A stretch of 64,000 bases of DNA, taken from assembly GCA_965216565.1 (NCBI GenBank), contig OZ244170.1, positions 3,520,001 to 3,584,000 of the forward strand, in the 5' to 3' direction. The DNA comes from Bythopirellula sp. (GTDB lineage Bacteria; Planctomycetota; Planctomycetia; Pirellulales; Lacipirellulaceae). This document shows, piece by piece, positions 23,346 to 44,012 of the stretch; positions within the stretch are counted from its first letter, which is position 1, and every line of letters begins with the position of its first letter. The translations under genes and the position numbers were made by a program. A model generated the notes under the pieces. The model saw only the letters and a list, made by a program, of their open reading frames with translations, made no database searches and had not been told where the DNA came from.

Positions 23346-25778
23346 CTACCGCTCAAAGTGAAACTCACCACTTGCGTTCGACGCGGGATTCAATGGCTGC
23401 GGGTGATTTGTGTTCGGTTGAAACGCAGGGACGACTTGCCCCGCACCGGGTTCATTCACGGTCGTGGGAATCGGTTCGGCTTTCGCCTTAGGTTCCCACA
23501 AGGCCGCTGCAGCGGCTTGGATTTGCGCGTTCGTTTGGCCCGGTTGTTCTGGGCTAGGAAAGGCGAACGGAGCGCCGGCAGTAATCGGCTGGGCAGCCAC
23601 TTCGGGAGCCCATTGGCCCGCAGCACGTAGAGCTGCAGTCTCTCCACTCGCTGGGATGGCTTGGAGGCCCGCTGTCTGTTCACCAGATTGCTGAGCGCTT
23701 AGTGACTGGGCATTCGCATGTGAGTCGCCCGCGTCTTCCGGTGCATCGGCGGAAGGCGGAAGCTGCTGGACTTCTTCGAATTCTGTCTCCGTTGGAATCA
23801 GCTCCAACGGCGAGACGTTGTCGAGCTGCTGTTCGTACGGCCCGTAAGCAACACGAGGAGCTTTGGCGGAAGCGTAACTCAGCGGCCGACGCTTGCCCCG
23901 CGATTGCTCTCGCTCGGCGGCATCCCGGTAAGCCATCTGAGGCCAGCCGCCCTCGCTGAGGTACACGCCGTCGTAGTCGAGCAAGGTTCCCTTGGCATAG
24001 TGGACGTTTTTCACTGCCAGCACATATTCCACCAGGCTACGTTGATGCCGGCTCTCGGCATCCGCCAGGCGTCGCTGGGCATCGAGGAACAGATCGAGTG
24101 GTGCTTTATCCGCTTCGAATTCGGCCCGAATTGCTTCTAGCTGCACACGGGCAGCATCTAACCGATTGAACGAAGTTTGCGAAACGACATAGGCCCGATC
24201 CATTTCCGCCACCGCAGCCGCCACGTCGTGAAGCACCTGACGCTCTTGCTCCTGCAGAATGGTACGTTCGCGGGCCAGTTGCAACTGGGCGTTACGAGTC
24301 GCAGCAAAGCCACGGCGGAAGCCGAGCGGCACATTCAACTCCACCCCTGCTTGCCATTCCTGGAAGTCGCCGCCGGTGAGGTTTTCGTAGGCATTGTCGA
24401 ATGCTGGATTGTTGTTGTCCGGATCGAGTAGATCCTGCCCAAATCCCCGCCAACGGTAGCGACCGATGACATCGAACCGAGGCAGGAGGTAATTCTTGCT
24501 GGCAATCCACTCCAGCTCGCGACGTCGCACTTCAAACCGTTGGCGACGGAGTTCGCCACGTCGGATTAGCGATTCGCGAGTAATCTCGCACCAATCGAAG
24601 GCTACCGGCGCCGTTAATGGCTCGTCGGCAGGCCGGACCAGTCGGCCGTCGCTGGGCGGCAAGCCCATCAGCAGCCGTAAACGACGTTCCGCCACGTGCA
24701 CACCTACATTCGCACGGAAAGTACCGCCACCAAAACCGTTGCCAGTCCGTGTACCGTCGATCAGCCGACCTGTGAGGGCGTTTTCCACCTCTTCCTGAAA
24801 GCGGAAATACTGCTCGCGAGCTTGTGCTTCCTTGAACGCCTCGCCACCGCGTCGCCCGGCTTCGAAACGAGCCTGAACGCCCCGCCAGGTTTCCAGAGCG
24901 GCGTCTCGTGCTTTGATCTTCGCATCAAGATCGCGGTAAGCATAGTAAAGGTCCCAGTAGGCGTTTTCCACGTTACTGACGAGGTCGCGAACCGCCAGTT
25001 CGAAATCTGCCAGCTCAACATCTGTGTTCACACGGGCGATCAGCACACCGTTGTAGACGCCCGGGGTCGTGCTCGGCCCGGCAATGCGGTTGAATTCCAT
25101 GCCGCTGCCCTGCAGCAGAGGATGACGGAACTCCGATTCGAAATTCACGTTCCAAGCACTGGGAAACAAGTTGCTGGGGGCGTTGTTTGAATCGTATTCG
25201 ATATTGTGGCGAAAACTGAATTCCGAGCCGGTAACAGCCCGTTTTGAGAGCTGCGACTGAATAACTGCCAGGTCCTGCTGCAGGATCCGAGTGCCGCCGC
25301 CGAAAAACTCGTTGTTGATCGCCTTGTCGTTCTTCTCGCCGAACACGCTGGTACTGAACTGGGCATCGAAGGCACTAAGTGCGGCGTCGATGCCGAACCG
25401 TGGATCGGTCTCTCTCACCGCGGGATCCCAATAGGTTTCTACCGAAGAAGGCGCCCGAAGCACGGCCCCACCCAATTCACGCAATACCTTCGACTGCGAA
25501 AGGGCCAGATGGACGACCTCTTCTAGCGGCAACTCCCAGTATTCAGGTTCTTCGTTGTCGGAAAGAGTGAGCGGCTCGACACATGCCCAACTCGAATCAA
25601 CCGCGCAGCACTGATTGACTTGTGGGTACTCGATCTCCGAGGCCATCGTGCGATAACAATCGGACGATTTACCCGCTTTGAAATCGCAGGCCGAGCGACC
25701 GTGGCAACCTAGAGTGGCTGCCAAGACGCTACTAAGCAGTGCGAAGAGTTGCATTTTTGTGGATGGCTGTCTGTACAT
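23346..25778 (-). CDS. TolC-family outer membrane efflux protein (lipoprotein, long low-complexity C-terminal tail)
   Basis: LAATLG-C lipobox, LPLEEVVHLAL, DLVSNVENAYWDLY, LLPRFDV, LNVPLG and LDLFLDAQRRL OEP motifs. Confidence 0.88.
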   Translation of the reverse strand: MYRQPSTKMQLFALLSSVLAATLGCHGRSACDFKAGKSSDCYRTMASEIEYPQVNQCCAVDSSWACVEPLTLSDNEEPEYWELPLEEVVHLALSQSKVLRELGGAVLRAPSSVETYWDPAVRETDPRFGIDAALSAFDAQFSTSVFGEKNDKAINNEFFGGGTRILQQDLAVIQSQLSKRAVTGSEFSFRHNIEYDSNNAPSNLFPSAWNVNFESEFRHPLLQGSGMEFNRIAGPSTTPGVYNGVLIARVNTDVELADFELAVRDLVSNVENAYWDLYYAYRDLDAKIKARDAALETWRGVQARFEAGRRGGEAFKEAQAREQYFRFQEEVENALTGRLIDGTRTGNGFGGGTFRANVGVHVAERRLRLLMGLPPSDGRLVRPADEPLTAPVAFDWCEITRESLIRRGELRRQRFEVRRRELEWIASKNYLLPRFDVIGRYRWRGFGQDLLDPDNNNPAFDNAYENLTGGDFQEWQAGVELNVPLGFRRGFAATRNAQLQLARERTILQEQERQVLHDVAAAVAEMDRAYVVSQTSFNRLDAARVQLEAIRAEFEADKAPLDLFLDAQRRLADAESRHQRSLVEYVLAVKNVHYAKGTLLDYDGVYLSEGGWPQMAYRDAAEREQSRGKRRPLSYASAKAPRVAYGPYEQQLDNVSPLELIPTETEFEEVQQLPPSADAPEDAGDSHANAQSLSAQQSGEQTAGLQAIPASGETAALRAAGQWAPEVAAQPITAGAPFAFPSPEQPGQTNAQIQAAAAALWEPKAKAEPIPTTVNEPGAGQVVPAFQPNTNHPQPLNPASNASGEFHFER

Positions 25779-26057
25779 GTCAGCAGATCGCTTTGTCGAA
25801 TCCTGGCCACCCCTGGCAGTAACTCAATGACGGTACGCACGGCGATTACGTAAGCCGATGGACCCTCGCTATCGTTTTCGGCGCCCGAGAACCGGAATAA
25901 CCAGAGTTTTCGTGCCGAATTGTTAAAAACATCAAACTTTGCTCGACAGTCAGAGTTTGCGCAAGTTGCCAGCAGCGGCCTCTGGCATCGCTGTTTCCGT
26001 CTATTGTTCGCCGCTAGCAAGAGTGTTTTCTGCGGTCTTGGATATACTGAAACTGTG

Positions 26058-28076
26058 ATGTCCTCGACCGAAAAACCGACGACCGACGGCAATACGTGGG
26101 ACCAACTAGAACAATTGGCCGACGAGTTGCATGATCTTGCGCGCACTCCGATCGATGCTGCTGAGTTCTATCGCGTACTACTTCAAGGCGCGGTGGCAAT
26201 GCTAGCTACGGACGGCGGTGCGGTATGGCAACGGGATGCCCACGGCCTGTGGAGCATCGTCTATCAAGCCAATCTTGCCCGTGTGTTGGACACACAGAAT
26301 CCAGACACCGCTGCGACACATCAACAATTGCTGACGCGGACATCCCAGTCCAGGGAGGTCCAATTGCTATCGCCCGGCAGTGGAACGGCAGACACACTGG
26401 AGAATCCCACAGATGCTCAAGTGTTGATTGGAACCGTACCTGTCGAAAGTGGTCCGGAGCGTTTGATCGAGCTGTTTTTGCCCACCGGTTGCGGCCCGGA
26501 GATTCACCAAGGCTGGCGGGAACTGTTGGAGACGCTTCGCCAGATTGCTGCCGATTATCATGCCTGGGACGAATTTCGTCACCTCCGGAAGGAACAAGGC
26601 TTCCATACCAGTTCACTCGCGATGCTACGGCGGGTACACGGAAACTCCGACCTACAGAGAACCGCGTTCGAGGTAGCGAACGAAGGACGTCAGCTCGTGG
26701 GTGCCGATCGTCTGAGCGTCCTGCTGCGAAGAGGCAATCGCTGGCGGCTCTTGGCTGTGAGTGGCGTCGACCGTGTGGAACCTCGCTCCGATGCTGCGAA
26801 GAGCTTGTGCCAATTGGCGGATTGGACTGCGCGTTGGAACGAACCGCTGGAATATGCCGAACAAAGCGGCCTCGAGAGCCTACCTGATGAATTGGCGGAC
26901 GTATTGGCCCGTCATGCAGACCAATCGCAGGCACGTTCGGTGGTTGCTGTGCCACTAGAATTCGTTCGCGAAACAGAAATACGCAAACCAACAACCGTCC
27001 GACCATCGGCAGTACTCATCGCTGAGCAATTCCAAGGCGACAACACCACGCTGACTCGACAGCATGTGCAAGACCTAGGCGAACTATGCGTCCCCGCTTT
27101 GCAGCAGGCCGATCGGCTCGATCGATTCCCGCTACGGACGATTCTCCGCTGGAGCGACCGCTGGGCCAAGCTGGGTTGGCTACGCGGCATCGCCAGAACG
27201 CTTTTGTACGCGACCGCAGCGGCAGCCTTGGTGGGAGCACTGGTATTTGTGGAGCGCGACTTCGAAGTCGAGGCCTCCGCCAACCTGGTTCCTCTGGTCG
27301 ATCACGATGTCTTTGCGTCGACTGATGGAACGGTTGCTACGGTACTCGTAGACCATGGAGATAGCGTCAATGCGGGAGATGTTCTGGCTACCTTGGACGA
27401 TCCTCAACTAGTGCTCGATTTGCAACGTGTCCGCGGCGAGATTGAGACGACTCGCAAACGGCTGGAAGCCATCGCGGTCGCCCGCACTGATCGGCAAGTG
27501 CGAGAGAACATTGAATCGGAGAGCCTGTCACTCTCCGCGGAAGCCGAGCAGCTTCGGCAACGGATGAACAGCCTGGAACGGCAGACGGAGATTCTCCTTG
27601 CTCGGCAATCAGCGCTAACCGTGAAGAGCCCCATTGACGGCATCGTGCTTACTCTCGACGTGCAGCACCTCTTAGAAACACGCCCCGTTTCTCGGGGGCA
27701 AGTGCTGTTTACAGTGGCCGATCCCAATGTGGGTTGGCAGTTGCTCGCTGAAGTTCCGCAAGACAGGATCGGCCATGTTACCCAGGCTCAGGACGAACAG
27801 GAGTCTGTACCGGTCAGAGTTCGACTGGTGGGCGACATCGATCAAATCTTCTCGGGACATCTTAACGCTATACGGGAAACCGCCGTGCTGGATGTCGATT
27901 CTCTGGCCGAAGACCTGCCTGCCGTTCAGGTGGAGATCTCCCTAGACGACCAATTACCATCGATTGCCCGACCGGGCATGAACGCCGACGTTCGGATTTA
28001 CTGTGGGCGTAAGTCGCTCGGATATGTCTGGCTGCATGACGTTTGGGAAACCGTGCACCGTTGGATAATTTTTTGA
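26058..28076 (+). CDS. GAF-domain-containing HlyD-family membrane fusion protein
   Basis: Two N-terminal GAF-like segments (GGAVW; GADRLSVL...LLAVSG), a TM, biotinyl/lipoyl-like halves (DGTVATVLVDHGDSVNAGDVL; VKSPIDGIV) around a coiled coil, and RPGM near the end. Confidence 0.85.
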   Translation: MSSTEKPTTDGNTWDQLEQLADELHDLARTPIDAAEFYRVLLQGAVAMLATDGGAVWQRDAHGLWSIVYQANLARVLDTQNPDTAATHQQLLTRTSQSREVQLLSPGSGTADTLENPTDAQVLIGTVPVESGPERLIELFLPTGCGPEIHQGWRELLETLRQIAADYHAWDEFRHLRKEQGFHTSSLAMLRRVHGNSDLQRTAFEVANEGRQLVGADRLSVLLRRGNRWRLLAVSGVDRVEPRSDAAKSLCQLADWTARWNEPLEYAEQSGLESLPDELADVLARHADQSQARSVVAVPLEFVRETEIRKPTTVRPSAVLIAEQFQGDNTTLTRQHVQDLGELCVPALQQADRLDRFPLRTILRWSDRWAKLGWLRGIARTLLYATAAAALVGALVFVERDFEVEASANLVPLVDHDVFASTDGTVATVLVDHGDSVNAGDVLATLDDPQLVLDLQRVRGEIETTRKRLEAIAVARTDRQVRENIESESLSLSAEAEQLRQRMNSLERQTEILLARQSALTVKSPIDGIVLTLDVQHLLETRPVSRGQVLFTVADPNVGWQLLAEVPQDRIGHVTQAQDEQESVPVRVRLVGDIDQIFSGHLNAIRETAVLDVDSLAEDLPAVQVEISLDDQLPSIARPGMNADVRIYCGRKSLGYVWLHDVWETVHRWIIF

Positions 28077-28948
28077 TGAACAAGCTCCAAGCAATTTTCT
28101 GCCTAGTGCTGCTGGCCTCGGTGCCTGTAACTAACGCATGCGCTAGCGATGTGGAACCAATTACCATCGAATCCGTCGTGTTGCGGCCGCTGCGTGCTGC
28201 CGAAATCCCAGCTCAGCAAACGGGATTGCTACTGCAGGTTTCTGTAGACGAAGGAGAAGTCGTCAAGAAGAAGCAAATTCTAGCCACGTTAGACCCTCAC
28301 GCAGCCCATCTAGCGGTGAAGCAAGCAATCGCCGAACGCGATCAGGCTCGAAAGGTTGCCGAGAATCGAATCAGCGTTGAATACACGGACAAAGCGATCG
28401 AAGTCGCTGAGGCGGAATTGCGGCGTTCGATGGAATCGATCGAGAAATTCCCGAAGAGCATTTCACAGTCGCAAATTGATGTGGAGCGATTGACGGTGGA
28501 AAAACTTCAACTCGAGCGACAACAGGCAGAGCACCAATTGTTACTGGAATCGTACTCCTTGAAGCTCAAAGAGAACGAACTTGCTGCGGCGAAATTGGCC
28601 TTGGAGAAACATCGCCTGCAGGCACCTTTCTCGGGGACTGTGGTTCTCGTGCGGGGACGCGTCGGTGAGTGGGTCGAAAAAGGCGACCTTGTGTTGCGAC
28701 TGGTAGCCGTGAAGAAGCTTCGTGCAGAAGGGTTCCTGCCCGTCGAACAGGCTTCGGCAGATCTGGTCGGACGAAACGTAACTTTCTCAACTGAACTCGG
28801 CGGCAAACCACTGCAGGCCACTGGCGAACTACGCTTTGTCAGCCCCGAAATGGATCCGGTGACACGACAAGTTCGCGTTTGGGCGGAACTCGATAATAGT
28901 GCTGGCACCCTGCGTTCGGGTGGCCAGGGAACAATGCGCATCGAATAG
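28076..28948 (+). CDS. HlyD/RND-type periplasmic adaptor subunit
   Basis: Signal peptide, IPAQQTG...VDEGEVV, coiled coil, LQAPFSG and VSPEMDPVTRQVRV. Start overlaps the previous stop (TGATG). Confidence 0.88.
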   Translation: MNKLQAIFCLVLLASVPVTNACASDVEPITIESVVLRPLRAAEIPAQQTGLLLQVSVDEGEVVKKKQILATLDPHAAHLAVKQAIAERDQARKVAENRISVEYTDKAIEVAEAELRRSMESIEKFPKSISQSQIDVERLTVEKLQLERQQAEHQLLLESYSLKLKENELAAAKLALEKHRLQAPFSGTVVLVRGRVGEWVEKGDLVLRLVAVKKLRAEGFLPVEQASADLVGRNVTFSTELGGKPLQATGELRFVSPEMDPVTRQVRVWAELDNSAGTLRSGGQGTMRIE

Positions 28949-28967
28949 ACCCAGAATCCAACGTTCC

Positions 28968-31148
28968 ATGGCAAACGCTTCGCACCATCAAATGTCGGCT
29001 ATCGATCGCCCCCTGGCGCTGCGTGCGCGACAAGACATTCAAACGGTAGAGGCTGCTTTCGTAGGCCAAGCTGCCTACGTGCTGAAGGATTCGCTGACAC
29101 TGGAACTCTTCCACCTGACCGCCGAAGAGTTTTTTCTGTTTCAGGCGGTCAAGGTTCGAACCACGCTTGGCCGACTGCGGCGTGAATTTGAACGACGTTT
29201 TGCACCTCGGCGGATCACCGAGCTGGCAATTCAAGAGGGATTGAACCAACTGCATAAACGAGGATTGCTTCTTAGCGAGGCTCCTGCGCAGGGGAAAGAG
29301 CTCTTGGAACGCAGCAGGGAACGTCAGAAACAAGAGTGGCTGCAAAGCTTCGTCAGCCTGCTTTCGTTTCGCCTGGGAAGTATTGATGCCACAGGGTTCA
29401 TTGATGGCATGTACCGTTGTGTTCGCTGGGCATTCTCGCTGCCGTGTTTGCTTATTGTCGCGGCAACGATGTTCTACGCCCTGCGAATTCTGTTTGTGGA
29501 GTTCAGTGAATTGACGGCCTCGCTCCCGGCCATGGCGGAATTAGCCCAGCCCAAATATTGGGCAATCTGGCTCACTACCGTCGCCATGGTGAAGGTTTTT
29601 CACGAACTGGGCCATGCGCTAGCTTGCAAACACTTTGGCGGACGTTGCCACGAAATTGGAGTGATCCTGTTGGCGTTCGTTCCCTGCTTATATTGCGATG
29701 TGTCGGACGTATGGCGGATGCCCAACAAATGGCACAGAATCGCCGTCTCCGCTGCAGGCATGGCGGTGGAATTGTTGATTGCTTCGCTCGCCCTGATTGC
29801 CTGGCATTATGCCGCGCCCGGTATTTTCCAGCTGTGGTGTTTGAGCTTGGTCCTGATCTGTTCGGTCACAACCCTATTTGTGAACGCCAATCCACTGCTC
29901 CGCTACGATGGCTATTACATTCTGTCCGATTTGGTGGAAGTGCCCAATCTCGCGACACGCGCTCAAAGTCTACTTAGCCAGCGGCTTACTGGATGGCTGC
30001 AAAATCAACCGCCTCAGCAAGACCCGTTGTTGAGTCCCGCACGTCGTCGAGCAGTGACACTCTATGCCATTGCCGCCAAAGTCTATCTCACATTGATCGT
30101 TCTGCTGATTTTCGCTGGACTGATTGCAGTAACTAGACCCTATCGCCTGGAAAACCTTATCTACACACTGGCTGCATTGACCCTGTGTGGCATGCTCGTC
30201 GCCCCGCTGATGAGCGTATGGAGACTCTGGAATAACCCCGTTTCGCGCTATCGATTGAGGATACCTCGAGCTCTGCTCCTAATGGTTTTGGTAGGTCTGC
30301 TGGGTGCCGGGGCATTTCTGTTTCCGATCGACCAATCGCTGACTGGGCCTGCCGTATTTGTTCCGCAGCAAGCTCAGACTATTTACGCAGCTACCGGTGG
30401 TCAGTTGGTGTTTGCTCAACCGGCTGGGACCGTCGTTGAGAAGGGAGAGGTTATCGCGCAATTGGTGGACACAGAGATCGATCTTGCAGTGGCTGAGCAG
30501 GAAGGCGAGTATCTGGTGCGTCAGGTCAGTTACGAACAGATCGAGACAATGCGTTCGTGGGATGAAACGGCCAGTGCCCGAGCCCCTACCGCCCGTGCGG
30601 CGTTGGCTGACGCTAAAGCCCAATTGGCGGAGCATCGCGAGCGGCAGGATGCACTAACACTTAGGGCTCCCACAGCGGGTGTGATTGTCGCGCCACCTGC
30701 GATTGAACCCAAAGCGAATACTCAAGGACAGCTGCGAAGTTGGATTGGCTCACCGCTGGAACCGAGAAACCGCGGTTGTTGGATCGAGCCAGGCACTATT
30801 ATTTGCAGTGTGGGTAACTCCAAAGATTTGAATGCCCTGGTGGCCATCGAAGAAACAGACGCGCCGGGAGTTTCGCCTGGAATGCAGGTACGAATTCTAG
30901 TCGAATCCTCACCCGTTCGTGTCGTCGAAGGTGTGGTTATCGACGTGGCCAAGCGCGGGAGTGCTCGATCAAGTGCTGCGTCGACCGGGGATCGGACAAA
31001 GGAACACTTAGCGGAGGTCCGACTAACGACCGACGATCCGCTTCTGATGATCGGCGCACGCGGTACTGCCAAGATCGAAGCGAGCCGTCGCACCCTGTGG
31101 CAGATTGCCTATCACGAAGTGCATGAAATGCTCAAGTTGCCTTGGTAG
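28968..31148 (+). CDS. site-2 protease (peptidase M50) fused to an HlyD-like domain, with a PqqD-like N-terminus
   Basis: KVFHELGH (HExxH in a TM), NANPLLRYDGYY (NPDG-type motif), multiple TMs, and C-terminal lipoyl/coiled-coil HlyD elements (LRAPTAG). Confidence 0.88.
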   Translation: MANASHHQMSAIDRPLALRARQDIQTVEAAFVGQAAYVLKDSLTLELFHLTAEEFFLFQAVKVRTTLGRLRREFERRFAPRRITELAIQEGLNQLHKRGLLLSEAPAQGKELLERSRERQKQEWLQSFVSLLSFRLGSIDATGFIDGMYRCVRWAFSLPCLLIVAATMFYALRILFVEFSELTASLPAMAELAQPKYWAIWLTTVAMVKVFHELGHALACKHFGGRCHEIGVILLAFVPCLYCDVSDVWRMPNKWHRIAVSAAGMAVELLIASLALIAWHYAAPGIFQLWCLSLVLICSVTTLFVNANPLLRYDGYYILSDLVEVPNLATRAQSLLSQRLTGWLQNQPPQQDPLLSPARRRAVTLYAIAAKVYLTLIVLLIFAGLIAVTRPYRLENLIYTLAALTLCGMLVAPLMSVWRLWNNPVSRYRLRIPRALLLMVLVGLLGAGAFLFPIDQSLTGPAVFVPQQAQTIYAATGGQLVFAQPAGTVVEKGEVIAQLVDTEIDLAVAEQEGEYLVRQVSYEQIETMRSWDETASARAPTARAALADAKAQLAEHRERQDALTLRAPTAGVIVAPPAIEPKANTQGQLRSWIGSPLEPRNRGCWIEPGTIICSVGNSKDLNALVAIEETDAPGVSPGMQVRILVESSPVRVVEGVVIDVAKRGSARSSAASTGDRTKEHLAEVRLTTDDPLLMIGARGTAKIEASRRTLWQIAYHEVHEMLKLPW

Positions 31149-31151
31149 TCG

Positions 31152-32015
31152 CTACGGCACGAGCGCCACAAGCCCGACAATGACCGCTGCTTCGAAGACA
31201 CCTGCCGCGACATGACGTGGAGGATGATGCCAACGGTAAGGGACACAATCGCCGGGTCGATAATGCCCCAAGGTGTAGATGCATTCGCAGGGCGGTCGCG
31301 CGACCATCAAATACGGTAGCGCGGGAATTGTGGCTAGGAATCGCCCTGCTGAGATAAAAGGCTGGACGCAATGACCACGTGTGTATCCATAGCGCTCGGC
31401 GTTGACTTCTTCGAAATAGAGCGGTCGATGATGCATACAAGTGGCAGCCCAGTGCTTTTCGTAAACCGCCCAACCGCAAGTAAGACGTGTATCGCCCACC
31501 GGCATGCTGGTGCGTCGACACTGTGCGGCGATGTCTTCCGGTAGTTTGCCAGCTGGGGCGGCAATGCCTACACGCACTGAAGAGATCGGAACGGCAACGA
31601 AACAAGGATCTCGCTGGACCTGTCCGGCTTCGATCTGTTCTTGATTGTTTTCTGCACCCGGCCCCACCGCATCTTGGAGCATCGCCAGATGATGCTGTTC
31701 CTCTAGCGATCCCTGCAGCGAAGTCAATTCAGTGCACCAGCGGGCAGCCATGTGGACAATAGGTTCCCAATCGAGAGCAGGGGTTACACCCAGATTCCGC
31801 AGTTCGCTAGCATGTCGTTGCTGTAGACGACCGGCAGGACTAGCAAGCTGGAATTCGGAATCGCGGCTTACGAAATCATTGGCAGAAGGCTGACTATTGG
31901 CAGTGGCAGGCCATAAGGTAACGCAAGCAAGTGCCAGCGCAATCCCTCGGAGCCATGTGTTTGCCCGACGACCGGAACAGCGGGGTAAGTTGCATGCGGG
32001 GAATGTCGTTTGCAT
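31152..32015 (-). CDS. conserved planctomycete-type hypothetical exported/membrane protein
   Basis: Signal peptide, WAATCMHHRPLYFEEVNAERYG...YTLGHYRPG core, and a hydrophobic C-terminus ending in P. Confidence 0.7.
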   Translation of the reverse strand: MQTTFPACNLPRCSGRRANTWLRGIALALACVTLWPATANSQPSANDFVSRDSEFQLASPAGRLQQRHASELRNLGVTPALDWEPIVHMAARWCTELTSLQGSLEEQHHLAMLQDAVGPGAENNQEQIEAGQVQRDPCFVAVPISSVRVGIAAPAGKLPEDIAAQCRRTSMPVGDTRLTCGWAVYEKHWAATCMHHRPLYFEEVNAERYGYTRGHCVQPFISAGRFLATIPALPYLMVARPPCECIYTLGHYRPGDCVPYRWHHPPRHVAAGVFEAAVIVGLVALVP

Positions 32016-32398
32016 ACGGTCGCTCAGCTTTCAAGGGTAGGAACACGGCAAACAATGCCGTCGCTGTGCGGTGTATTCGTCGCGTTACAACCCTATTCTC
32101 AAGAAGATTCGTTGTGCGCCTTACGATCGTTGTGAGTGGCGCATCCGGCAAAGTTTCTCTAGGCTCGCACCAAAACCAGGCCGAGGACGGCCTAAATGTC
32201 TAATTTCCGGCTGCCAGGCAGTTCCGCGAATGCCTGAATACTGAGGCCCAAATGTTTGCATCTGCATGAGTTTGTCGGGATAATCAGTAATAGCTCGTAT
32301 GGATCACGAATCCGTCGGCATGAAGCAGAGCAAGACGCCCTCCTCGCCACCCTAACTTGCTAGCGAATCACCCTTTTCTGTAGGACACTTCTCGCATC

Positions 32399-35300
32399 AT
32401 GGGTCTGTTCACAATCTTTGCAAGTTGCCTGGGGCTATTTCGCCGTAAACGAACTTCTCATTCGGAGCAATTACAAGCTCGACCACTCGTGCCGCGCACC
32501 CTCGAGCGCCGACGCGTACTCGATGCTTCAGCCGCCGGAGCAGCACTAGCGCCCCTGGCCGAGCTGACCGACACCGTACAAACCGGTTTGTACGATACAG
32601 GCGAAGGCACGGAAAACGAAGAAGAAATTGTCCTATCTGGGGAGTCAGAAAACACGTCGCCCTCCAATCTGCAGATTCAACCACTCGATCCTGTATTGGA
32701 AAACGGTTTCGCTCAGTTATCTTTGTCGTTTGACGACCCCGACTTTGAAGACTCCCACACCGTGGAGATCGATTGGGGTGATGGAACGGTAGAGACCATC
32801 AATCTCAACGAAGACCAGCTATCGCTCGTCACACAGCACCAATATCTTGATGACGATCCAACAGCCACGCCATCGGATCTGACTCCGATCATGGTGACCG
32901 TCACCGACAGCTATGGAGAATCGGTCAGCGAGTCGGCCACTGTTGAAGTGATTAATGTCGATCCCGAGATCACGTTCTTCTCTGTCACTTCTCCCATCAA
33001 TGAAAATGACAGTGTCATTTTGCAGCTGGCGTTCGAAGACGTAGGCTCGCTGGATAACCATACGGTCGAGATCGATTGGGGCGACGGAACTCCGATCGAG
33101 ACGATCATTCTGAGCGACGACCAGTTTTCGCTCGTCACCCAACATAAGTATCTCGACGACAATCCTAGTGGAACTCCAAGTGACGACTACACGGTGACAG
33201 CCACGGTGATTGATGACGACACTGGCAGCGACTCGGCTATGACGGTTGTTACCGTGAATAATGTCAATCCGATACTCATGCTGAATCCACTGGCGGATAT
33301 TAGCGAAAACGACAGCACAACTCTCAGCGGCAATGTGAGTGACGTCGGCACGCTCGATACTTTCACGCTCGATATCGATTGGGGCGATCCCTTGAGTCCC
33401 GACAACGTGCAGTCGTTTAACCTAGGAAATGTTGTTCTAACCGAAGCGGCCGACGGGATTAATTGGAATCCCGTGACGGGAGACTTCTCACTTTCGCATC
33501 AGTATCTCGACGATAATCCCAGCGGCGATCCCAGCAACGACTACACCGTGAGTGTAACGGTCACCGACGACGATACCGGCACCAACATGGCAATGGCAAT
33601 GCTCACCGTGAGCAATGTTGCCCCGATGGTCACCATCAACGATGCGCCGCTCAACAGCCCCGAAGGCACGCAGATTGATCTAACGAGTACAGTCGTCGAC
33701 CCCGGCTCGCTCGACACCTTCACCTATGCTTGGGAAGCCTCTGTGGGCGGCAATGTCGTGGCCACGGGAAGTGATCCAAACTTTAGCTTCACACCGGCTG
33801 ACGATGGAACCTACCTGGTGAAACTGGAAGTAACCGACGACGATGGTGAGTCGGGTATGAATATGGTCTCCATAGAAGTGATGAACGTAGATCCAACTTT
33901 GGCACCCATCGCCAACATCACAGCCAATGAGGGCGAGTTCATCATGCTTCCTCCGGCTACCTTTAGCGATCCCGGATTTGATCTCGTAGCGGCTGGCACC
34001 CAGGAGAACTTCACCGCCACCATCGACTGGGGCGATGGAACCACCGAGCCGGTCGGCGATATCACCCTGGTCGAAGTCCCAGGTAGCGAAGGCGTGCTTA
34101 CCACCGGCACCATCCAGGCCATGCATGCTTATGCCGACAACGGAGTTTACACCGTGACCGTCACCGTGATAGACGACGATGGTGGCAGTGCCTCGCAGAT
34201 GTTTGAGGTCACCGTTAGTAACGTTAATCCCACGCTCGATCCCATCGCTAATATCACAGCCAATGAGGGCGAGTTCATCATGCTCCCCCCCGCTACTTTT
34301 AGCGATCCCGGGTTCGACTTGGCAGCGGCTGGCACCCAGGAGAACTTCACCGCCACCATCGACTGGGGCGATGGCACCACCGAGCCGGTCGGCGATATCA
34401 CCCTGGTCGAAGTCCCAGGTAGCGAAGGCGTGCTTACCACCGGCACCATCCAGGCCATGCATGCTTATGCCGACAACGGAGTTTACACCGTGACCGTCAC
34501 CGTGATAGACGACGATGGTGGAGTCGGGATGGCGGAGTTTACCGTGACAGTGGCCAATGTTGCGCCATCTCTCACCGGCGTGGATGGCTCCGAGATATTG
34601 GACGAAGGCGAAGAGTTCACTCTGGCTGACTTTGGGTTGGGGATTAGTGATCCGGGATTCGACAATCCCCTCAACGTCGGCGGTGAATTGGAAGAGACGT
34701 TTACCGGAGTTTCGATCGACTGGGGCGATGGCACTGCAGCGATTCCAGTAAACGTCGTGAATAGAGTTTCGGGCAGTGAAGGTGTATTGACCACCGCTGA
34801 ATTCGACCATGCAGCCCACGCTTACGCCGATAACGGCACGTACACGGTTACCGTCACATTCTCGGACGATGACGGTGGAGTAACCGCTGCTGAGTTTGAG
34901 GTGATCGTGAACAACGTGGCGCCAACATTGGTGCTCACCGATCGGGTGCTGGTGATCAACGAAGGCGATACGCTCGATTTGTTCGACCTTGGCACATTTA
35001 GCGATCCAGGGTTCGATAACCCAGCCAATCCCAACGGTGCCTCGACAGAGAGTTTCACCTACGAAATCACTTGGGAACAAGGCGTTGCGCCGGAAGGTGG
35101 CTTACTCCCAGCCACAGAAGTGGACGGGATGCAAGGCACGCCTACCACAGGCACATTGGCTGACAGCCACCTCTATATCGACAATGACGACGATAGCTTT
35201 TTCACCATTACGGTCACACTCACTGACGACGACGGCGGCAGTGACACGCAGCAGATTATGGTGCAGGTCAACAACCTCAACCCGGTCCTCGATCCTATCG

Positions 35301-36424
35301 CAGCAACCGATATCAATACCAAAGGCGAGACGGTCCTGACGCTAAGCTTCGATGACATCGGTATCGAAACTGCCTATCTCACCGCGGATGACAGTGCATT
35401 CCGCATTATGATCGATTGGGGTTATGTGGGTGTACCCGGTATGGAAGGGTTTATTGAGCAAGTCGACTACAACGGCGGCACTCCCGAGTCGTTTGTCATT
35501 CAGCATACCTACATGCAACAGCCGAATCCGATGAATCCCGCGGCCGATCTCATTTTGCGCGTCCAAATTCTGGACGATGATAATGGCAACGACCTAGTCA
35601 TGGCCGAAGGTGCGAGCAACATCGAAATCGTAGCTATTTCCAATCCGGGAATCGGTGGGCAACCTGTCAGCATCGATACCACTCCGCAGGTTCCCCGGCT
35701 CACGTTCCAGCGCACATCGGCTACAGCACTCTCGTTCCAGTTTTCCACTACCTCTGAGGCTAACGTTAGCGGCGGCGATATACGCTCTGCCTCTTCTGAT
35801 TCCAAGGCAACGACCGAACAAATCCTGGAACTGCGGGTCATCGACTCCTACGGTGTGGAAAGCGAGGGAATTCCGCTCAAGGCAGAAGTCCTCAACAACT
35901 TGCCTGATTTGTTCTACAAGCTTCCAGACAATCACTACGTGATTTATCTGGTCCGCCAAGAGACTAACAGCGAACGTCTGGTCATCGAGATCTATCTACG
36001 CGGTGGCCGTATCATCGATCCTACCGATGACAGCGAGGGCCTGCGCAATCGTCCGCCCACAGAAGAACAAAATGACCTGCTTGACCAAACGGGCGAACAA
36101 GGTCAGCAGGACTCTGATGTGGACGCCATGCTGGAAGAAGTCAAAGAGACGCTCCAGGATGAAATTGAACCCGAGGGCGAATTGCGGATCGAGCCAGCAC
36201 AACCAATCGCTCCGCCATCAGAACAAGAAGTCGGCCCGGGAATCGACGAGGGAGCGAGCCGCGACAGGTCGACGACGCAGATGCTCGGTCTGGCCACCGG
36301 CCTGGTTGCAACCCGCTCGTTTGGCACCTGGGCTCGCCGTGTCGATCGCACCTTGGCCCAAGCAGACAAGAAAAAATGGCGAGAACTTCGTCGTCGCACC
36401 CGGCATAAGCGAAAAAACCGGTAA
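32399..36424 (+). CDS. large PKD/Ig-like repeat protein with an N-terminal LEPRxLL-like motif (candidate adhesin)
   Basis: PRTLERRRVLDA motif and about 9 repeats of IDWGDG...HxYxD...VTDDD; strongly acidic, with a hydrophobic then basic C-terminal tail. Confidence 0.85.
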   Translation: MGLFTIFASCLGLFRRKRTSHSEQLQARPLVPRTLERRRVLDASAAGAALAPLAELTDTVQTGLYDTGEGTENEEEIVLSGESENTSPSNLQIQPLDPVLENGFAQLSLSFDDPDFEDSHTVEIDWGDGTVETINLNEDQLSLVTQHQYLDDDPTATPSDLTPIMVTVTDSYGESVSESATVEVINVDPEITFFSVTSPINENDSVILQLAFEDVGSLDNHTVEIDWGDGTPIETIILSDDQFSLVTQHKYLDDNPSGTPSDDYTVTATVIDDDTGSDSAMTVVTVNNVNPILMLNPLADISENDSTTLSGNVSDVGTLDTFTLDIDWGDPLSPDNVQSFNLGNVVLTEAADGINWNPVTGDFSLSHQYLDDNPSGDPSNDYTVSVTVTDDDTGTNMAMAMLTVSNVAPMVTINDAPLNSPEGTQIDLTSTVVDPGSLDTFTYAWEASVGGNVVATGSDPNFSFTPADDGTYLVKLEVTDDDGESGMNMVSIEVMNVDPTLAPIANITANEGEFIMLPPATFSDPGFDLVAAGTQENFTATIDWGDGTTEPVGDITLVEVPGSEGVLTTGTIQAMHAYADNGVYTVTVTVIDDDGGSASQMFEVTVSNVNPTLDPIANITANEGEFIMLPPATFSDPGFDLAAAGTQENFTATIDWGDGTTEPVGDITLVEVPGSEGVLTTGTIQAMHAYADNGVYTVTVTVIDDDGGVGMAEFTVTVANVAPSLTGVDGSEILDEGEEFTLADFGLGISDPGFDNPLNVGGELEETFTGVSIDWGDGTAAIPVNVVNRVSGSEGVLTTAEFDHAAHAYADNGTYTVTVTFSDDDGGVTAAEFEVIVNNVAPTLVLTDRVLVINEGDTLDLFDLGTFSDPGFDNPANPNGASTESFTYEITWEQGVAPEGGLLPATEVDGMQGTPTTGTLADSHLYIDNDDDSFFTITVTLTDDDGGSDTQQIMVQVNNLNPVLDPIAATDINTKGETVLTLSFDDIGIETAYLTADDSAFRIMIDWGYVGVPGMEGFIEQVDYNGGTPESFVIQHTYMQQPNPMNPAADLILRVQILDDDNGNDLVMAEGASNIEIVAISNPGIGGQPVSIDTTPQVPRLTFQRTSATALSFQFSTTSEANVSGGDIRSASSDSKATTEQILELRVIDSYGVESEGIPLKAEVLNNLPDLFYKLPDNHYVIYLVRQETNSERLVIEIYLRGGRIIDPTDDSEGLRNRPPTEEQNDLLDQTGEQGQQDSDVDAMLEEVKETLQDEIEPEGELRIEPAQPIAPPSEQEVGPGIDEGASRDRSTTQMLGLATGLVATRSFGTWARRVDRTLAQADKKKWRELRRRTRHKRKNR
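33905..34521 (+). repeat. intragenic tandem duplication, period 336 bp (112 aa)
   Basis: 33905-34185 and 34241-34521 are near-identical at the DNA level. Confidence 0.92.
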
Positions 36425-36528: not shown

Positions 36529-39500
36529 ATGGCCGCGTGTCATGTCTGCCACAATTTAGCCGACGAGTCCTCACTTGCCGCTGGAAAGTGTGGCGTGTGT
36601 GGCGCTGTGCTGCGTAAGATGCCACGGCGTAGCATTGATGACCAAACGCAGCCGCTCGATCCCACGAAGACTCCACCTTCGCCAGAACCGCCCGCCCCTC
36701 CCAGTTCTCCCGGCGAACAAACCATCACTCTTGGTGAGGAACAAGCCACGGTCATTAGCCCGATGGATCTCTCCGCCGGTTCACCACCTGCAACAGACAC
36801 AGGCGAGGACTTGGGTCCGGAGCATGATACGAACAGCGGTCAGGAGAATCTCGAAACCCATCGGACTGAGACTCCTGCTGAGCCGACTGATTCAGATCCC
36901 TACAAGACAGTAGCTCCCGAAGAGAAGCTACCAACCGAAGAGGCACCGACTTCGGATCAAGGCTCTTCAGATGAGGGGCAAGGCACCGTTGCCTTCTCGC
37001 CCGATCAAACCGTCGATTTCGCAGCCGGGATCACGGGTCTCGACAGCGATTCGGATGATCCTCCCTCCGACGAAGGCCAAGGAACTGTTGCATTCTCGCC
37101 GGACAAGACCATCGATTTTAAAGGAGACGTCTCTGGCGATGACCTTGATTCTTTGGTCACGGCCAATTGGGACACCAATGTCGAAGGCGATGTGAAGGAT
37201 TCCCGGGGCACAATCAAGCAGAAAGACACCGTGCATGGCCAGATGGCCACTAAAAGTTCGATCGTGGTTAAGTCCCGGCAATTCCATAGTGGGCGATCTG
37301 CCGTCGATCAAATTATTTCTCCTGCCGATGCACCTGACTACGAGTTGCTCGATGTGATCGGTGAAGGCGGCATGGGCGTGGTTTATGCCGCACGCCAATC
37401 GGCGATTGCTCGGACTGTGGCCGTCAAGATGCTGAAAGGCAAAGACACAGAGTCGGTAGAGCAGAGAGAGAAATTCATTTCCGAAGCGGTAGTCACTGGC
37501 GAACTCGACCATCCGAACATCGTGCCTATTTACGATCTAGGCTCAAACGATAGCGGTGCCCTCTTCTATTCCATGAAGCGGGTGAAAGGAACGCCATGGA
37601 ACAAGGTACTTAGCGAGAAATCGCTTGACGAAAATCTGAACATATTGCTAAGGGTCGCCGACGCGGTAGCGTTCGCCCATGCCAATGGCGTGGTGCATCG
37701 CGATCTGAAGCCTGAGAACACCATGCTCGGCGACTTCGGCGAAGTGCTGGTGATGGACTGGGGACTTGCGCGCATCAGCCCCGACTTCCCTAATGCCGAC
37801 TCCGTGAGCCAATCGGACGTGATGGGTGGCACGCCCGCCTATATGGCTCCCGAGATGGCTACCGGACCCATCGAGAAGGTAACAATCGCCAGCGATATTT
37901 ATCTGCTGGGGGCCATGCTCTATGAAATCATCGAGGGTCGCACCCCTCATACTGGCAGCACCGTAATGGCCTGTCTGTTCGCTGCCGCCAAGAACAAGAT
38001 TCCTCCGCCCAAGAATCCCGGCGAGTTGTCTGACATAGCCCTCAAGGCCATGGCAACCGATCCGGCGGATCGTTACGCGTCAGCTCGCGAATTCCAAGAA
38101 GCCTTACGAGTGTACCAATCGCACTCCGAGAGCATTGTACTTACTGATAGTGCTGCTAAGAGTCTGGCCGAAGCGCGTGACAAGGACGACTACGATCTAT
38201 TCAGCCGAGCCATGTACGGTTTTCAGGAAGCGGTCACCATGTGGTCGGGCAACCGACGCGCCAAGGAGTTGCTTTCGGAATCGAAAGTGGCCTATGCCAA
38301 CTCGGCGTTAGGTCGTGGCGACTTTGAATTAGGCCTTTCGCTACTGGACTCGCAAGATGCCGAGCACGCGGAGGTGATTGCCCAACTGGAAGCGGGTCGC
38401 AAAGAGCGCCGGTCGCGGCAACGTCGCATGAATCTCCTGAAAGGTCTCGTGGCAGCGCTCATTGCCGCCGTGATTGGCACGGTTGGCTATGCGTATGTGG
38501 CTGTAAGCCAGCAACGCGACATTGCCGTCAAGGCGCGCGACGAGGCAGTCACTCAGCGCGACCGCGCCGAAGAGCAGGAGAAAATTGCCAAAGAGCAAAC
38601 AAAACGCGCCGTCGCGGCAGAAAAAGACGCCTTAGAGCAAAAAGACGTAGCTCTGGCCGCCGAAGAAGAGGCTGTGAAACAAAAAGTGAAGGCTGACGTC
38701 GCCAGAGACAAGGCTATTGAGCAAGAAAAAATTGCTAAAGAGCAACGCCAGCTAGCCGTAGAAGCCAAGCAGCGAGAAGAGTACGAAGCCTATGTGGCTC
38801 AAATCGGATTGGCGAATGCCAAGATCGAAGAGAACGCGTTCGACCGAGCTCAGCAACTCTTGATGCAATGCAACGAGGAGCTCAGCCGCTGGGAGTGGGG
38901 ACGGCTCGCCTATCTATGCCAACTTAGCGAGGCAACCTGGCAGTTGGACGGGCCAGTGGAAGACATCGCTTACTCTCCCGATGGCAAGTACTACGCTACC
39001 GCTGATCTGGCCGGCAACGCTATCCTCTGGGACGCAGCGAATCACAAGAAACTCAAGACCCTTTCTCACGGGCAGTACGTCCACGCAGTCGCCTTCGATA
39101 ACACGGGCACCAAGTTTGCCTCAGGCAGTAGCGATCGAACGATTCGCATCTACAGTGTCCCCGATGGCAAACAGTTGCGACAACTTGCGGGACATAAAGA
39201 TGGGGTGATTAGCCTGAGCTTTAGTCCAGATGGCCGCCAACTACTAAGCGGTAGTTTTGACAACACCGCAGTTCTGTGGGACGTCCGTTCTGGAAAACCA
39301 GTTCAACAGCTGAAGGGGCATAGTTGGTGGGTCTGGAACGCGGAGTTCTCCAAAGACAATAACCGCATTGTTACCGCCGGTCAGGATGGCAAGGCAATCG
39401 TCTGGAGCCGTCAGGCGAGCCAGGGAGCCTACCGACCTCTAACCGAATTTACAAAGCATCGCGGCCCAATCAACGCAGCGACCTTCTCGCCAGATGGTTC

Positions 39501-41712
39501 TCGAATCGCCACGGCCGGAGCCGACGGACGGATACTGATTTGGAATCCCGATGAAGTCCAGCCTGTGGATATTGCCCGACGCATTGATAACGAAGTCGAT
39601 CCACCCGCCCCCTACGTCGAATTCTTAGGTCACGAAAAACCGGTTTGCTCGATTGCCTTCTCACCCGACGGGTCGCAATTGATTTCTGGTGGCGAAGACA
39701 ATGTCAGTCGAATTTGGCAAGTGGCAACTGGCGAACAATTGTTGAGCTTGCGGGGTCATACAAGCTATGTCCGAGACTGTGTGTTCTCTCCCGATGGCAG
39801 TCGGGTGCTCTCCGCTAGTCGAGATCAACAAGTGAAATTATGGGATCCCTCGTCGTATGGTGAGGCCCTGGCGTTGGGCCGCAACGAAGGTTCGCAACAT
39901 GCTGATGCCGTGCTGTCGGCGCGATTCTCTACCGACGGGAGTCAAATCGTAACCGCCAGCCGCGACCGCACCGCACAACTGTGGGACACGCAATCGCAGA
40001 CTTTAGTCGAGTCGTTCAACGAGGGACATGAATTTCTGGCCTCCTATGCTGTGTTCTTTAGCGGTGGTAGCAAGCTGGCGACTTCCGCTGGGGATGGCAC
40101 GACCCGGATTTGGAACGTCGCCAGTGGTACGGAAATCGATAGTCTCAAGGGCACAGGTCGCACAGCGTCGCTTGATGTCTCTGCAGACGGTCGTTGGCTT
40201 GCCACGGCTGGCAATGAGAACAACGTGAAAGTATGGGATCTAAATTCTAATAAGTTGGTTGCGAATCTAAGGGGACACGAGGAGGCTGTGAGCGCGATTA
40301 GTTTTGCCTCGGATGGCACGGCCTTGGCTTCGGGTGACGAACGAGGGCGTTGCCGGACCTGGATTCTGGAAGACAACCAGTGGCGGGACGGACAAGAGCT
40401 ACGAGGACATAGCCGGGCCATTACGGGACTTGCGTTCACGCCGCAGGGTCGACTAGTTTCGGCCAGTGGCGACAACACATGTGCCCAATGGGATTTGAAA
40501 ACCGGTCGAGAGTTGACCACGCTTGTTCTTAAGCATCCTGGTTGGGTCACCGATCTGGATGTTTCCGAAGACGGTGCAATGGCTCTAACAATTTGCGACG
40601 ATGGTCAGTTGCGGTTGTGGTCTTTGGAAGACGCCCGGCCACTTCGCAAGATTCAGCCCCGTACCAATGTGCTATTCACCTCGGTCGATATTTCGCCTAA
40701 CGGGAAGTTGGCTATCGCTGCCTGTGCGGCTGAGGCTTCTGTGCAAATGTGGAAGTTAGATACGGGCGAAGAGGTCACTGATGGTAATGCAGCTTGGCTC
40801 GACTTGGGCGATCGCAGTGGTATCCTCTGGTCGGCTCAGTTCTCTCCCAGCGGCGATCGCGTGCTAACGATCGGCGGAAATGATGCACAAATGTGGGATA
40901 TCGGCAGCCGCGAACAACTAGTGCGATTTACCCCGCACGGAACCGTGGCGTCGGCCGATCTGTCACCCGATGGCAGACTTTTGGTCACCGGCAGCTGGGA
41001 CCGTTCGGCCAAGATTTGGGATGTCTCTACAGGAAAAGCGATTCGCAAGCTCGACGGCGTTCACCAAGGTTTTGTGAATAGCGTTGAGTTTTCGCCGAAT
41101 GGAAAACTCATTCTCACGGCTAGCGACGATGGTACAGCCCGCGTTTGGGATGTCGCGTCTGGCGAGGTAACCGAACCTATATTCCAGGGTCATTCGGGGC
41201 GTGTCCTCAGTGCCCGCTTTAGCGCCGACGGCTCGAAAGTGCTGACCACCTCCGGTGACAAGACCGCGAAGATTTGGGATGCAAGCACTGGCAAAATCTT
41301 AACAACCTTGTCGGGACATCGATGGGGCGTGCTGTGCGGAGAGTTTTCTGCGGATGCCAACAGAGTTGTCACGGGCAGCGCAGATGACCAGGCGATTGTC
41401 TGGGACGCCCGCTCAGGTGAGATCCTGATGAAGTTGGCCGGCCACACCTCCAGCGTCACTGGGGTTGCCTTCTCGCCCGATGGCAATCGAGTACTAACTG
41501 GGAGCCGAGACAGCCTTTGCAAGCTATGGGATGCCCGCACTGGCAAAGAGATTTTGACACTCGAAGGTCAAAACGCTGAGATCACTTCGGTGAGCTTCTC
41601 CCCGGACGGACTTTCCGTTCTGACGAGTGACCGCGATGGCCAGACAAGACTGTGGCCGGCGCTCGACTGGCGACAACGGCGTCCCCAACAGGCATGGCAC
41701 ACTCCACGCTAG
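36529..41712 (+). CDS. Hanks-type Ser/Thr kinase with TM, coiled coil and 21 WD40 repeats
   Basis: IGEGGMGVVY, VAVK, HRDLKPEN, DWG and GTPAYMAPE; TM LVAALIAAVIGTVGYAYV; 21 GH...WD-type repeats counted; N-terminal CxxC...CxxC. Confidence 0.95.
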   Translation: MAACHVCHNLADESSLAAGKCGVCGAVLRKMPRRSIDDQTQPLDPTKTPPSPEPPAPPSSPGEQTITLGEEQATVISPMDLSAGSPPATDTGEDLGPEHDTNSGQENLETHRTETPAEPTDSDPYKTVAPEEKLPTEEAPTSDQGSSDEGQGTVAFSPDQTVDFAAGITGLDSDSDDPPSDEGQGTVAFSPDKTIDFKGDVSGDDLDSLVTANWDTNVEGDVKDSRGTIKQKDTVHGQMATKSSIVVKSRQFHSGRSAVDQIISPADAPDYELLDVIGEGGMGVVYAARQSAIARTVAVKMLKGKDTESVEQREKFISEAVVTGELDHPNIVPIYDLGSNDSGALFYSMKRVKGTPWNKVLSEKSLDENLNILLRVADAVAFAHANGVVHRDLKPENTMLGDFGEVLVMDWGLARISPDFPNADSVSQSDVMGGTPAYMAPEMATGPIEKVTIASDIYLLGAMLYEIIEGRTPHTGSTVMACLFAAAKNKIPPPKNPGELSDIALKAMATDPADRYASAREFQEALRVYQSHSESIVLTDSAAKSLAEARDKDDYDLFSRAMYGFQEAVTMWSGNRRAKELLSESKVAYANSALGRGDFELGLSLLDSQDAEHAEVIAQLEAGRKERRSRQRRMNLLKGLVAALIAAVIGTVGYAYVAVSQQRDIAVKARDEAVTQRDRAEEQEKIAKEQTKRAVAAEKDALEQKDVALAAEEEAVKQKVKADVARDKAIEQEKIAKEQRQLAVEAKQREEYEAYVAQIGLANAKIEENAFDRAQQLLMQCNEELSRWEWGRLAYLCQLSEATWQLDGPVEDIAYSPDGKYYATADLAGNAILWDAANHKKLKTLSHGQYVHAVAFDNTGTKFASGSSDRTIRIYSVPDGKQLRQLAGHKDGVISLSFSPDGRQLLSGSFDNTAVLWDVRSGKPVQQLKGHSWWVWNAEFSKDNNRIVTAGQDGKAIVWSRQASQGAYRPLTEFTKHRGPINAATFSPDGSRIATAGADGRILIWNPDEVQPVDIARRIDNEVDPPAPYVEFLGHEKPVCSIAFSPDGSQLISGGEDNVSRIWQVATGEQLLSLRGHTSYVRDCVFSPDGSRVLSASRDQQVKLWDPSSYGEALALGRNEGSQHADAVLSARFSTDGSQIVTASRDRTAQLWDTQSQTLVESFNEGHEFLASYAVFFSGGSKLATSAGDGTTRIWNVASGTEIDSLKGTGRTASLDVSADGRWLATAGNENNVKVWDLNSNKLVANLRGHEEAVSAISFASDGTALASGDERGRCRTWILEDNQWRDGQELRGHSRAITGLAFTPQGRLVSASGDNTCAQWDLKTGRELTTLVLKHPGWVTDLDVSEDGAMALTICDDGQLRLWSLEDARPLRKIQPRTNVLFTSVDISPNGKLAIAACAAEASVQMWKLDTGEEVTDGNAAWLDLGDRSGILWSAQFSPSGDRVLTIGGNDAQMWDIGSREQLVRFTPHGTVASADLSPDGRLLVTGSWDRSAKIWDVSTGKAIRKLDGVHQGFVNSVEFSPNGKLILTASDDGTARVWDVASGEVTEPIFQGHSGRVLSARFSADGSKVLTTSGDKTAKIWDASTGKILTTLSGHRWGVLCGEFSADANRVVTGSADDQAIVWDARSGEILMKLAGHTSSVTGVAFSPDGNRVLTGSRDSLCKLWDARTGKEILTLEGQNAEITSVSFSPDGLSVLTSDRDGQTRLWPALDWRQRRPQQAWHTPR

Positions 41713-41896
41713 CAGTCTCAATTACAATACTTCGACTCGCACTTTATCTACGCTAGCACCGTTCACCTGGAAACCTCCTTCAGGTGTATGGCAAGATGAA
41801 CCGATAATGTTGACGAGTACATGCTCTGCGCACAGGGACTGTGCATGCATAGCGACGACTGTCTACCAACTAATTGTCGAACAAGGAAGTGTCGAC

Positions 41897-42904: not shown

Positions 42905-42962
42905 GCAGACGAAGCTAGACATTGGTATCCTGCGCTCCTCTGCCATATCGGAACAAATTATT

Positions 42963-44000: not shown

Positions 44001-44012
44001 ATCGAACGACGC

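Follow-up and report, generated by a model that had tools for sequence, protein, structure and literature searches.

A 64-kb window of a Bythopirellula sp. genome, which is the whole stretch of DNA analyzed in this study, contains at 23346..36424 a six-gene locus that a preliminary description had interpreted as a type I secretion-like assembly without an ATP-binding cassette (ABC) ATPase. All six genes it had named were found in place: the gene for a TolC-type outer-membrane factor is divergent from a three-gene operon, as seen from an OEP family match and the strand layout, and each operon product possesses an HlyD-type module, recognized by HlyD_3 in the first, by TIGR01730 in the second, and by a MacA-like predicted fold in the third. 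Genes for a small conserved protein and for a PKD-repeat protein, regarded here as the candidate cargo, complete the locus. Walker A and ABC signature motifs are absent from all six proteins, and scans with Pfam and NCBIfam profiles gave no match to ABC, RND, or MFS families among the six genes; no RND or MFS transporter family, as expected of a tripartite pump, was matched among the neighbors either. The locus, with an HlyD-type adaptor and a TolC-type channel and no ABC protein as the inner-membrane component, is not a canonical type I secretion system (T1SS). It is a member of the gene set published by Kamneva, Poudel and Ward in 2015, in which the same genes stand beside a wingless SecA_DEAD protein and an ABC is missing (PMC4452313). 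The mention in the preliminary description of such a set with a second SecA in Planctomycetes-Verrucomicrobia-Chlamydiae bacteria was correct, and the defining traits are all present here: three adaptor genes together, no ABC in the locus, and a wingless secondary SecA_DEAD, in this case elsewhere in the genome. The GC content of the locus is about the same as that of its flanks, and a promoter and terminator scan gave counts below the shuffled means.

The TolC-type protein (810 amino acids; 23346..25778, minus strand) matches Pfam OEP with 88 bits in two stretches, and its N terminus is lipoprotein-like, with an LGC sequence that may be a lipobox. Its orthologue holds the divergent position in 17 of the 20 same-genus loci of the window type, the remaining three being cut by contig ends; a paralogue stands isolated at 4.999 Mb in the same genome. 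The first operon gene (26058..28076, plus strand) encodes a GAF-HlyD adaptor of 672 amino acids when counted from the likely ATG; the longest frame starts at 25920. Its product comprises a GAF-like N-terminal region, a single hydrophobic helix, and an HlyD-type adaptor for which HlyD_3 (49 bits), Biotin_lipoyl_2, and HlyD_D23 scored above their cut-offs, and GAF itself, matched in 38 of 53 homologues, reaches 20.6 bits in the window protein, which is under the cut-off. The stand-alone HlyD/RND-type periplasmic adaptor encoded next (28076..28948, plus strand; TIGR01730, 110 bits, above cut-off) has a hydrophobic N terminus, and its ATG overlaps the TGA of the GAF-HlyD gene in the sequence TGATG.

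The protease-adaptor fusion and the candidate cargo

The third operon gene (28968..31148, plus strand) encodes an M50 protease-HlyD fusion with three parts, namely a PqqD/RRE region at residues ~16-105, a site-2 protease, and an HlyD-type adaptor at residues 454-715. The Pfam Peptidase_M50 match (27.8 bits) is above cut-off, and the site-2 protease motifs HELGH (residues 212-216) and NPLLRYDG (308-315) are conserved in the alignment, where HExxH is kept in 91 of 92 full-length homologues and NPxxxDG in 83 of 91. In an AlphaFold2 model (pLDDT 85.8, 121 sequences) compared with known folds by VIA-align, the N-terminal part resembles leader-bound structures of the recognition element (RRE) known from RiPPs (peptides synthesized by ribosomes and modified post-translationally): TbiB1 gave Z 10.2 with a root mean square deviation of 2.6 over 86 residues, and TfuB1 gave Z 10.1. 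The membrane part resembles the site-2 proteases RseP (Z 10.8), SpoIVFB (Z 10.2), and MJ0392 (within the range Z 9.6-10.8), and residues 454-715 resemble MacA (Z 17.2). The fusion is, therefore, predicted to start with a PqqD-type leader-binding fold, since the model shows the three strands followed by three helices of a winged-helix domain of ~90 residues, and Pfam PqqD matches 27 of 41 family members. The protease motifs likewise lie in a membrane-embedded fold in the model. The N-terminal domain was overlooked in the preliminary description. The best NCBIfam match of the fusion is the daptide intramembrane metalloprotease NF041824; the score of 150 bits lies below the cut-off of 300, and a Pfam scan found no daptide enzyme families among the window neighbors, so that the protein is not assigned to the daptide family.

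The candidate cargo (32399..36424, plus strand) is a PKD/Ig-repeat protein of 1341 amino acids (PKD_4, 94.7 bits) that is acidic, with 17% D+E, one Cys, and 10 DDD-type motifs. It had been called giant; a repeat protein is present, with orthologues of 890-1964 amino acids, and large is the more fitting word. Also overlooked was a tag, LERRRVLDA, at residues 35-43 (32501..32527, plus strand), which follows a basic stretch and is a variant of the LExRxLL / LEPR-XLL / Planc_extracel motif. The window leader has, after its basic stretch and within the first 60 residues, the core L-E-x-R-x-hydrophobic-hydrophobic that it shares with Planc_extracel (PF07595) and LEPR-XLL (NF012209), whose members are also large surface-type proteins. 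L-E-x-R-R is invariant across 14 aligned leaders of the cargo family, and family members reading LEPRRMLDA and LEPRLVFNA form a bridge to LEPR-XLL. When 81 proteins, the window protein included, were picked by the C-terminal domain of the cargo alone, 56 had the motif in their first 90 residues, as against 2 of 1027 internal windows; inspected by eye, 17 of the other 25 begin with M/V-L-D-A/G, that is, their start was called inside the motif, and 8 begin elsewhere. A reading of the leader as a twin-arginine translocation (Tat) signal was rejected, with 14.4 bits against a cut-off of 16.7, a match in 1 of the 14 leaders, and no hydrophobic N-terminal segment above threshold.

The C-terminal module of the cargo (35816..36424, plus strand), conserved in the family alignment, consists of a compact domain of ~70 residues and, after a linker, a segment of weak hydrophobicity followed by two helices and a basic tail with 13 K/R in the last 25 residues. 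The compact domain is predicted with pLDDT >85. A fold comparison against 48,161 chains gave nothing better than Z 4.7, which is no match, and a sequence search of the PDB was likewise negative; this is not proof of a new fold. In one locus (L024, G011:C3), the cargo orthologue is spread over three frames through a frameshift or an assembly error.

About 30 proteins of this genome carry the tag, including all three of its RTX-repeat proteins; four of the 30 are encoded at most 13 kb from a module and the others more than 110 kb away. The largest, of 5207 amino acids, is also the largest frame of the genome (G000:C1 3195599-3211222, loci L014 and L015; G000 denotes the genome of the window); after it come, within 20 kb, three more tagged genes and no module. 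The tag has been considered a novel export signal since 2004 (Studholme, cited in PMC8567305), and 8 of the 10 longest Tuwongella proteins carry it; in the available part of that source no export machine is assigned to the Planc_extracel / LEPR-XLL motif (PMC8567305).

Distribution of the module and the tag

The module is present in 41 of 41 relatives, and a scan of genome contigs with a single M50 protein returned only four loci. The tagged PKD gene is found in 11 of the 20 same-genus loci of the window type, and five of the others end too early to show it. In a quick tree of the proteases, from which L043 (a duplicate), L074 (no HExxH), and frames <600 amino acids were left out, the window-type proteins form a 21-row clade with support 100 and a stem of 0.79. 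The window copy, a paralogue at the level of the genus, goes with a single cargo family, and the adjacent PKD protein is probably the one that it is reserved for. In none of 10 same-genus loci does a short-branched paralogue have a tagged neighbor, one chance pattern match being set aside; this copy, which lacks a cargo gene, probably handles the majority of the ~30 scattered tagged proteins. Two further module copies of the genome lie at G000:C1 3.442-3.448 Mb (L008) and 4.044-4.049 Mb (L010), and the third copy of the genome is accompanied by a TolC gene of its own and, within 13 kb, by three tagged genes.

In one draw of 251 Planctomycetota genomes, with the tag scored by NF012209, the module was found in 72 genomes, the tag in 35, and both in 33 (Fisher's p 2e-18, with the own genome excluded and kinship uncorrected). 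Outside the own class, 27 of 29 tag-positive genomes have the module, and in family f23 the same two of nine genomes are positive for both. PF07595 was discarded as a marker, being too insensitive, with matches in 8 of 251 genomes, 5 with the module and 3 without. A plasmid survey gave 92 records with a match, of which 12 were viewed and 2 of those were uninformative. On 9 of the 10 informative plasmid loci, a gene for 3,500-16,000 amino acids lies upstream of the module with no annotated ABC; all seven N termini that were read bear the tag, and the annotation of the other two genes is LEPR-XLL. At the tenth locus there is a gene for 492 residues without the tag. Among Alpha-, Beta-, and Gammaproteobacteria, as among several families of planctomycetes, tagged giant genes stand directly before the module. 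The synteny with large repeat proteins, whose absence would have spoken against the preliminary description, thus exists both in same-genus loci and on plasmids.

Enterobacterial plasmids, such as NZ_CP022155.1 (L016) and similar ones of E. coli and Citrobacter, hold a module copy flanked by insertion sequences, with a 4457-residue tagged Ig-like gene, TolC, and three adaptors and with neither ABC nor SecA2. DUF3467 or SapC genes lie beside many proteobacterial copies (L018, L019, L020, L022), and the SecA2 there bears the annotation "prepilin peptidase" or "DEAD/DEAH box helicase".

As for the remaining genes of the window, the small conserved gene after the operon (31152..32015) is present as previously described, and its strand is minus, so that it faces the operon convergently and points away from the PKD gene. 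It encodes a conserved planctomycete protein of 287 amino acids that has a hydrophobic C terminus, an HxPLYFEE..ERYG motif, and no Pfam family; a homology search matched unnamed Planctomycetota clusters only. The gene is syntenic in 15 of the 20 same-genus loci of the window type. In locus L062 the homologue comes immediately after TolC and shares its strand, and a 502-residue paralogue of the C-terminal half of the protein is encoded at G000:C1 3396509-3398017. Downstream of the cargo, a Ser/Thr kinase-WD40 gene (36529..41712, plus strand; Pkinase and WD40) recurs in 8 of the 11 cargo-bearing same-genus loci, with a kinase domain ~80% identical across the genus. The region after it (41627-44837) contains one gene without annotation, one for a tyrosine-autokinase-like P-loop protein, and an AAA gene of XrtA-associated-ATPase-like type, none of which scores above cut-off. 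The last of these (44013-44837) was weighed as a possible motor and dismissed, since it lies beyond the kinase gene and 7.6 kb past the cargo. An 85-residue frame at 17358-17615 (minus strand) presumably resembles a RelE/ParE-type toxin.

Energy source, mechanism, and alternatives

Only three of 95 homologous loci, with the window, a duplicate, and 8 plasmid loci counted among them, contain an ABC ATPase; the three are MsbA-like, OppD/DppD-like, and LolD-like. A partner ABC transporter was rejected on this ground, the three being unrelated in kind, and the earlier view of a noncanonical export locus without such a partner was upheld. No ABC of the genome reaches the TIGR01842 cut-off. The energy source, which had been called unexplained, is less so because the genome encodes a wingless SecA2 and because SecA2 adjoins the module in 20 of the 95 loci; SecA2 is, however, missing from several plasmid copies. 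The second secA, absent from the window, was found outside it by a genome-wide search for SecA_DEAD. It encodes a stand-alone protein of about 647 amino acids at 1.706 Mb of G000 that has the DEAD, cross-linking, and P-loop domains, lacks the wing (no SecA_SW match), and shares 60-62% identity with the operon-linked copies of two relatives. Because the E-value of the SecA2 profile did not cleanly split SecA1 from SecA2, the latter was counted by frame length, by eye; among the matches listed, short SecA frames occur in 38 genomes, 36 of which are module-positive.

The best reading of these findings, which we hold with moderate confidence, is that the cargo undergoes leader-guided, N-terminus-first export that is likely driven by SecA2. 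The predicted cytoplasmic RRE of the M50 fusion would bind the N-terminal LExRRVLDA tag of the cargo, which we consider likely from the structural resemblance to leader-bound RREs. The membrane protease would then cut the leader, a step for which the chances seem slightly better than even. The unfolded chain would probably pass, N terminus first, through the adaptor funnel and the TolC of the window and would fold outside. The separately encoded wingless SecA2 might push the chain, although its role as motor for this particular copy falls a little short of an even chance. The basic C-terminal tail could perhaps hold the cargo at the cell, and this last step is doubtful.

Several observations weigh against this reading. 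Pfam PqqD does not match the window protein as a single sequence, and LERRRVLDA scores below the thresholds of both PF07595 and NF012209. Four same-genus 20-kb regions (L028, L029, L032, L036) contain the operon and lack the PKD gene, no NF012209 match was obtained in 39 of the 72 module-positive genomes, and five tag-positive genomes (G189, G237, G195, G213, and G245; 91-95% complete) lack the RRE-M50 protein even by profile. The co-occurrence statistic is, as noted, uncorrected for kinship. SecA2 is 1.8 Mb distant here and unlinked in all 20 loci of the window type, and a SecA_DEAD gene is absent from all five tested plasmid records that have the module and no SecA2, a search that covered the plasmid records and not the host chromosomes. 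Lastly, an ABC-HlyD-TolC trio resembling a T1SS is encoded at G000:C1 957491-962926 (L113), 2.6 kb from a tagged RTX protein.

The SecA2 findings bear directly on one alternative, in which the exporter is equally leader-guided and this copy is driven by something other than SecA2, the energy being supplied by the proton gradient, by co-translational threading or the housekeeping SecA, and by calcium-driven folding outside. E. coli has a single secA, and the proteobacterial plasmid copies, including those on E. coli plasmids, have no SecA_DEAD on the replicon in the five records tested. SecA2 may not be universal because of these records, and the acidic cargo with its DDD-type motifs would suit folding with calcium. 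The 36 module-positive genomes among the 38 with a short SecA, together with the 20 loci where SecA2 adjoins the module, argue the other way, and we regard this alternative as unlikely. The trio is a possible alternative export route, and it lends some support to a two-step scheme, in which Sec, Tat, or an ABC transporter borrowed for the purpose would take the cargo across the inner membrane, and the module would only mature the protein and hand it from the periplasm to TolC. A preprint in which giant LEPRxLL proteins are kept in the periplasm before export, as far as its available part goes (10.64898/2026.03.19.712371), and the partial score of the window leader on the Tat model point in the same direction. 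That score is, however, under the cut-off, is matched by a single leader of the family, and comes without an N-terminal hydrophobic segment above threshold; no type of ABC is consistently linked to the module, and the ATPase domain of the trio is weak (ABC_tran, 29.5 bits). A two-step route is, therefore, quite improbable.

It could also be supposed that the module handles something else, such as a small ribosomal peptide, or serves in signaling through the GAF sensor, regulated proteolysis, and the adjacent kinase, with the large genes as mere passengers. The nearest characterized architecture is indeed that of RiPP leader proteases, the kinase-WD40 gene is syntenic, and many module copies have no tagged neighbor. 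Yet tagged giant genes sit immediately ahead of the module in three classes of proteobacteria and several planctomycete families, 33 of the 35 tag-positive genomes have the module, and no peptide-modifying enzyme family was matched among the window neighbors, where short precursor frames were not systematically searched; such a role appears very unlikely. Leader-guided export with SecA2 as the likely motor is, thus, the reading that we retain.

Relation to known systems and significance

The locus shares with that of Kamneva et al. the GAF-HlyD, HlyD, and M50-HlyD genes, sometimes an OEP gene, and the lack of an ABC. Those authors proposed SecA2 as the ATPase and M50 as the pore, noting that SecA2 is sometimes encoded elsewhere in the genome, and in the main text and 16 of the 19 supplements they name no substrate, leader, or PqqD/RRE domain (PMC4452313). 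The idea of the preliminary description that the site-2 protease is the inner-membrane component was already in print in 2015, and both this role and a single funnel of the three adaptors are hypothetical here. What we infer beyond that study is a cargo with its tag, the RRE fold, and a division of labor among paralogues. For two giant Chlorobium LEPRxLL proteins, C-terminus-first export by SapC/TolC/HlyD was proposed in a 2026 preprint, whose available part does not mention M50 (10.64898/2026.03.19.712371). No publication joining the tag with the module was found in a literature search in which most subscription journals were not covered.

A second comparison concerns T1SSs for giant adhesins (HlyBD-TolC, LapBCE, SiiCDF), which use a TolC duct and an HlyD-type adaptor for large, acidic, nearly Cys-free repeat cargo. 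The duct, the adaptor, and the large, acidic, nearly Cys-free repeat cargo are shared with the present locus, and three tagged proteins of this genome even have RTX repeats. Unlike those systems, the locus has no ABC and three different adaptors, and the conserved signal is N-terminal rather than C-terminal and uncleaved. In peptidase-containing ABC exporters (C39-ABC, for colicin V and bacteriocins), a protease fused to the transporter reads and cuts an N-terminal leader during export via an adaptor and TolC. The logic proposed here is the same; the protease is instead an intramembrane M50 fused to an adaptor, and the candidate substrates are proteins of 100-1600 kDa. The daptide protein MpaP, described in the available part of its source as an RRE-site-2 protease fusion that removes a leader with an ELExMEAP motif (10.1101/2023.03.08.531785), shares with the window protein the N-terminal RRE fused to M50 and a leader motif with an L-E core; the daptide system differs, as far as that source goes, in having no HlyD fusion or TolC and in the export of small peptides by ABC transporters.

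We tentatively propose, as an idea somewhat less probable than its negation, that the module represents a distinct and widespread secretion class, in which a RiPP-like leader reader composed of RRE and intramembrane protease is fused to a TolC funnel and exports, ABC-free and N terminus first, proteins of up to 16,000 residues. Its paralogues would read dialects of the tag, here LExRRVLDA for one PKD family tethered by a basic tail, in a mirror image of LapA-type retention. If true, this would join a gene cassette described in 2015 without a substrate to an N-terminal export tag proposed in 2004 without a machine. Among the proteins that bear the tag are ~30 of this genome and some of the largest known from bacteria. 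An ABC-independent, leader-guided TolC route would widen the catalog of secretion systems and would, if true, account for the display of giant surface proteins by planctomycetes and many proteobacteria.

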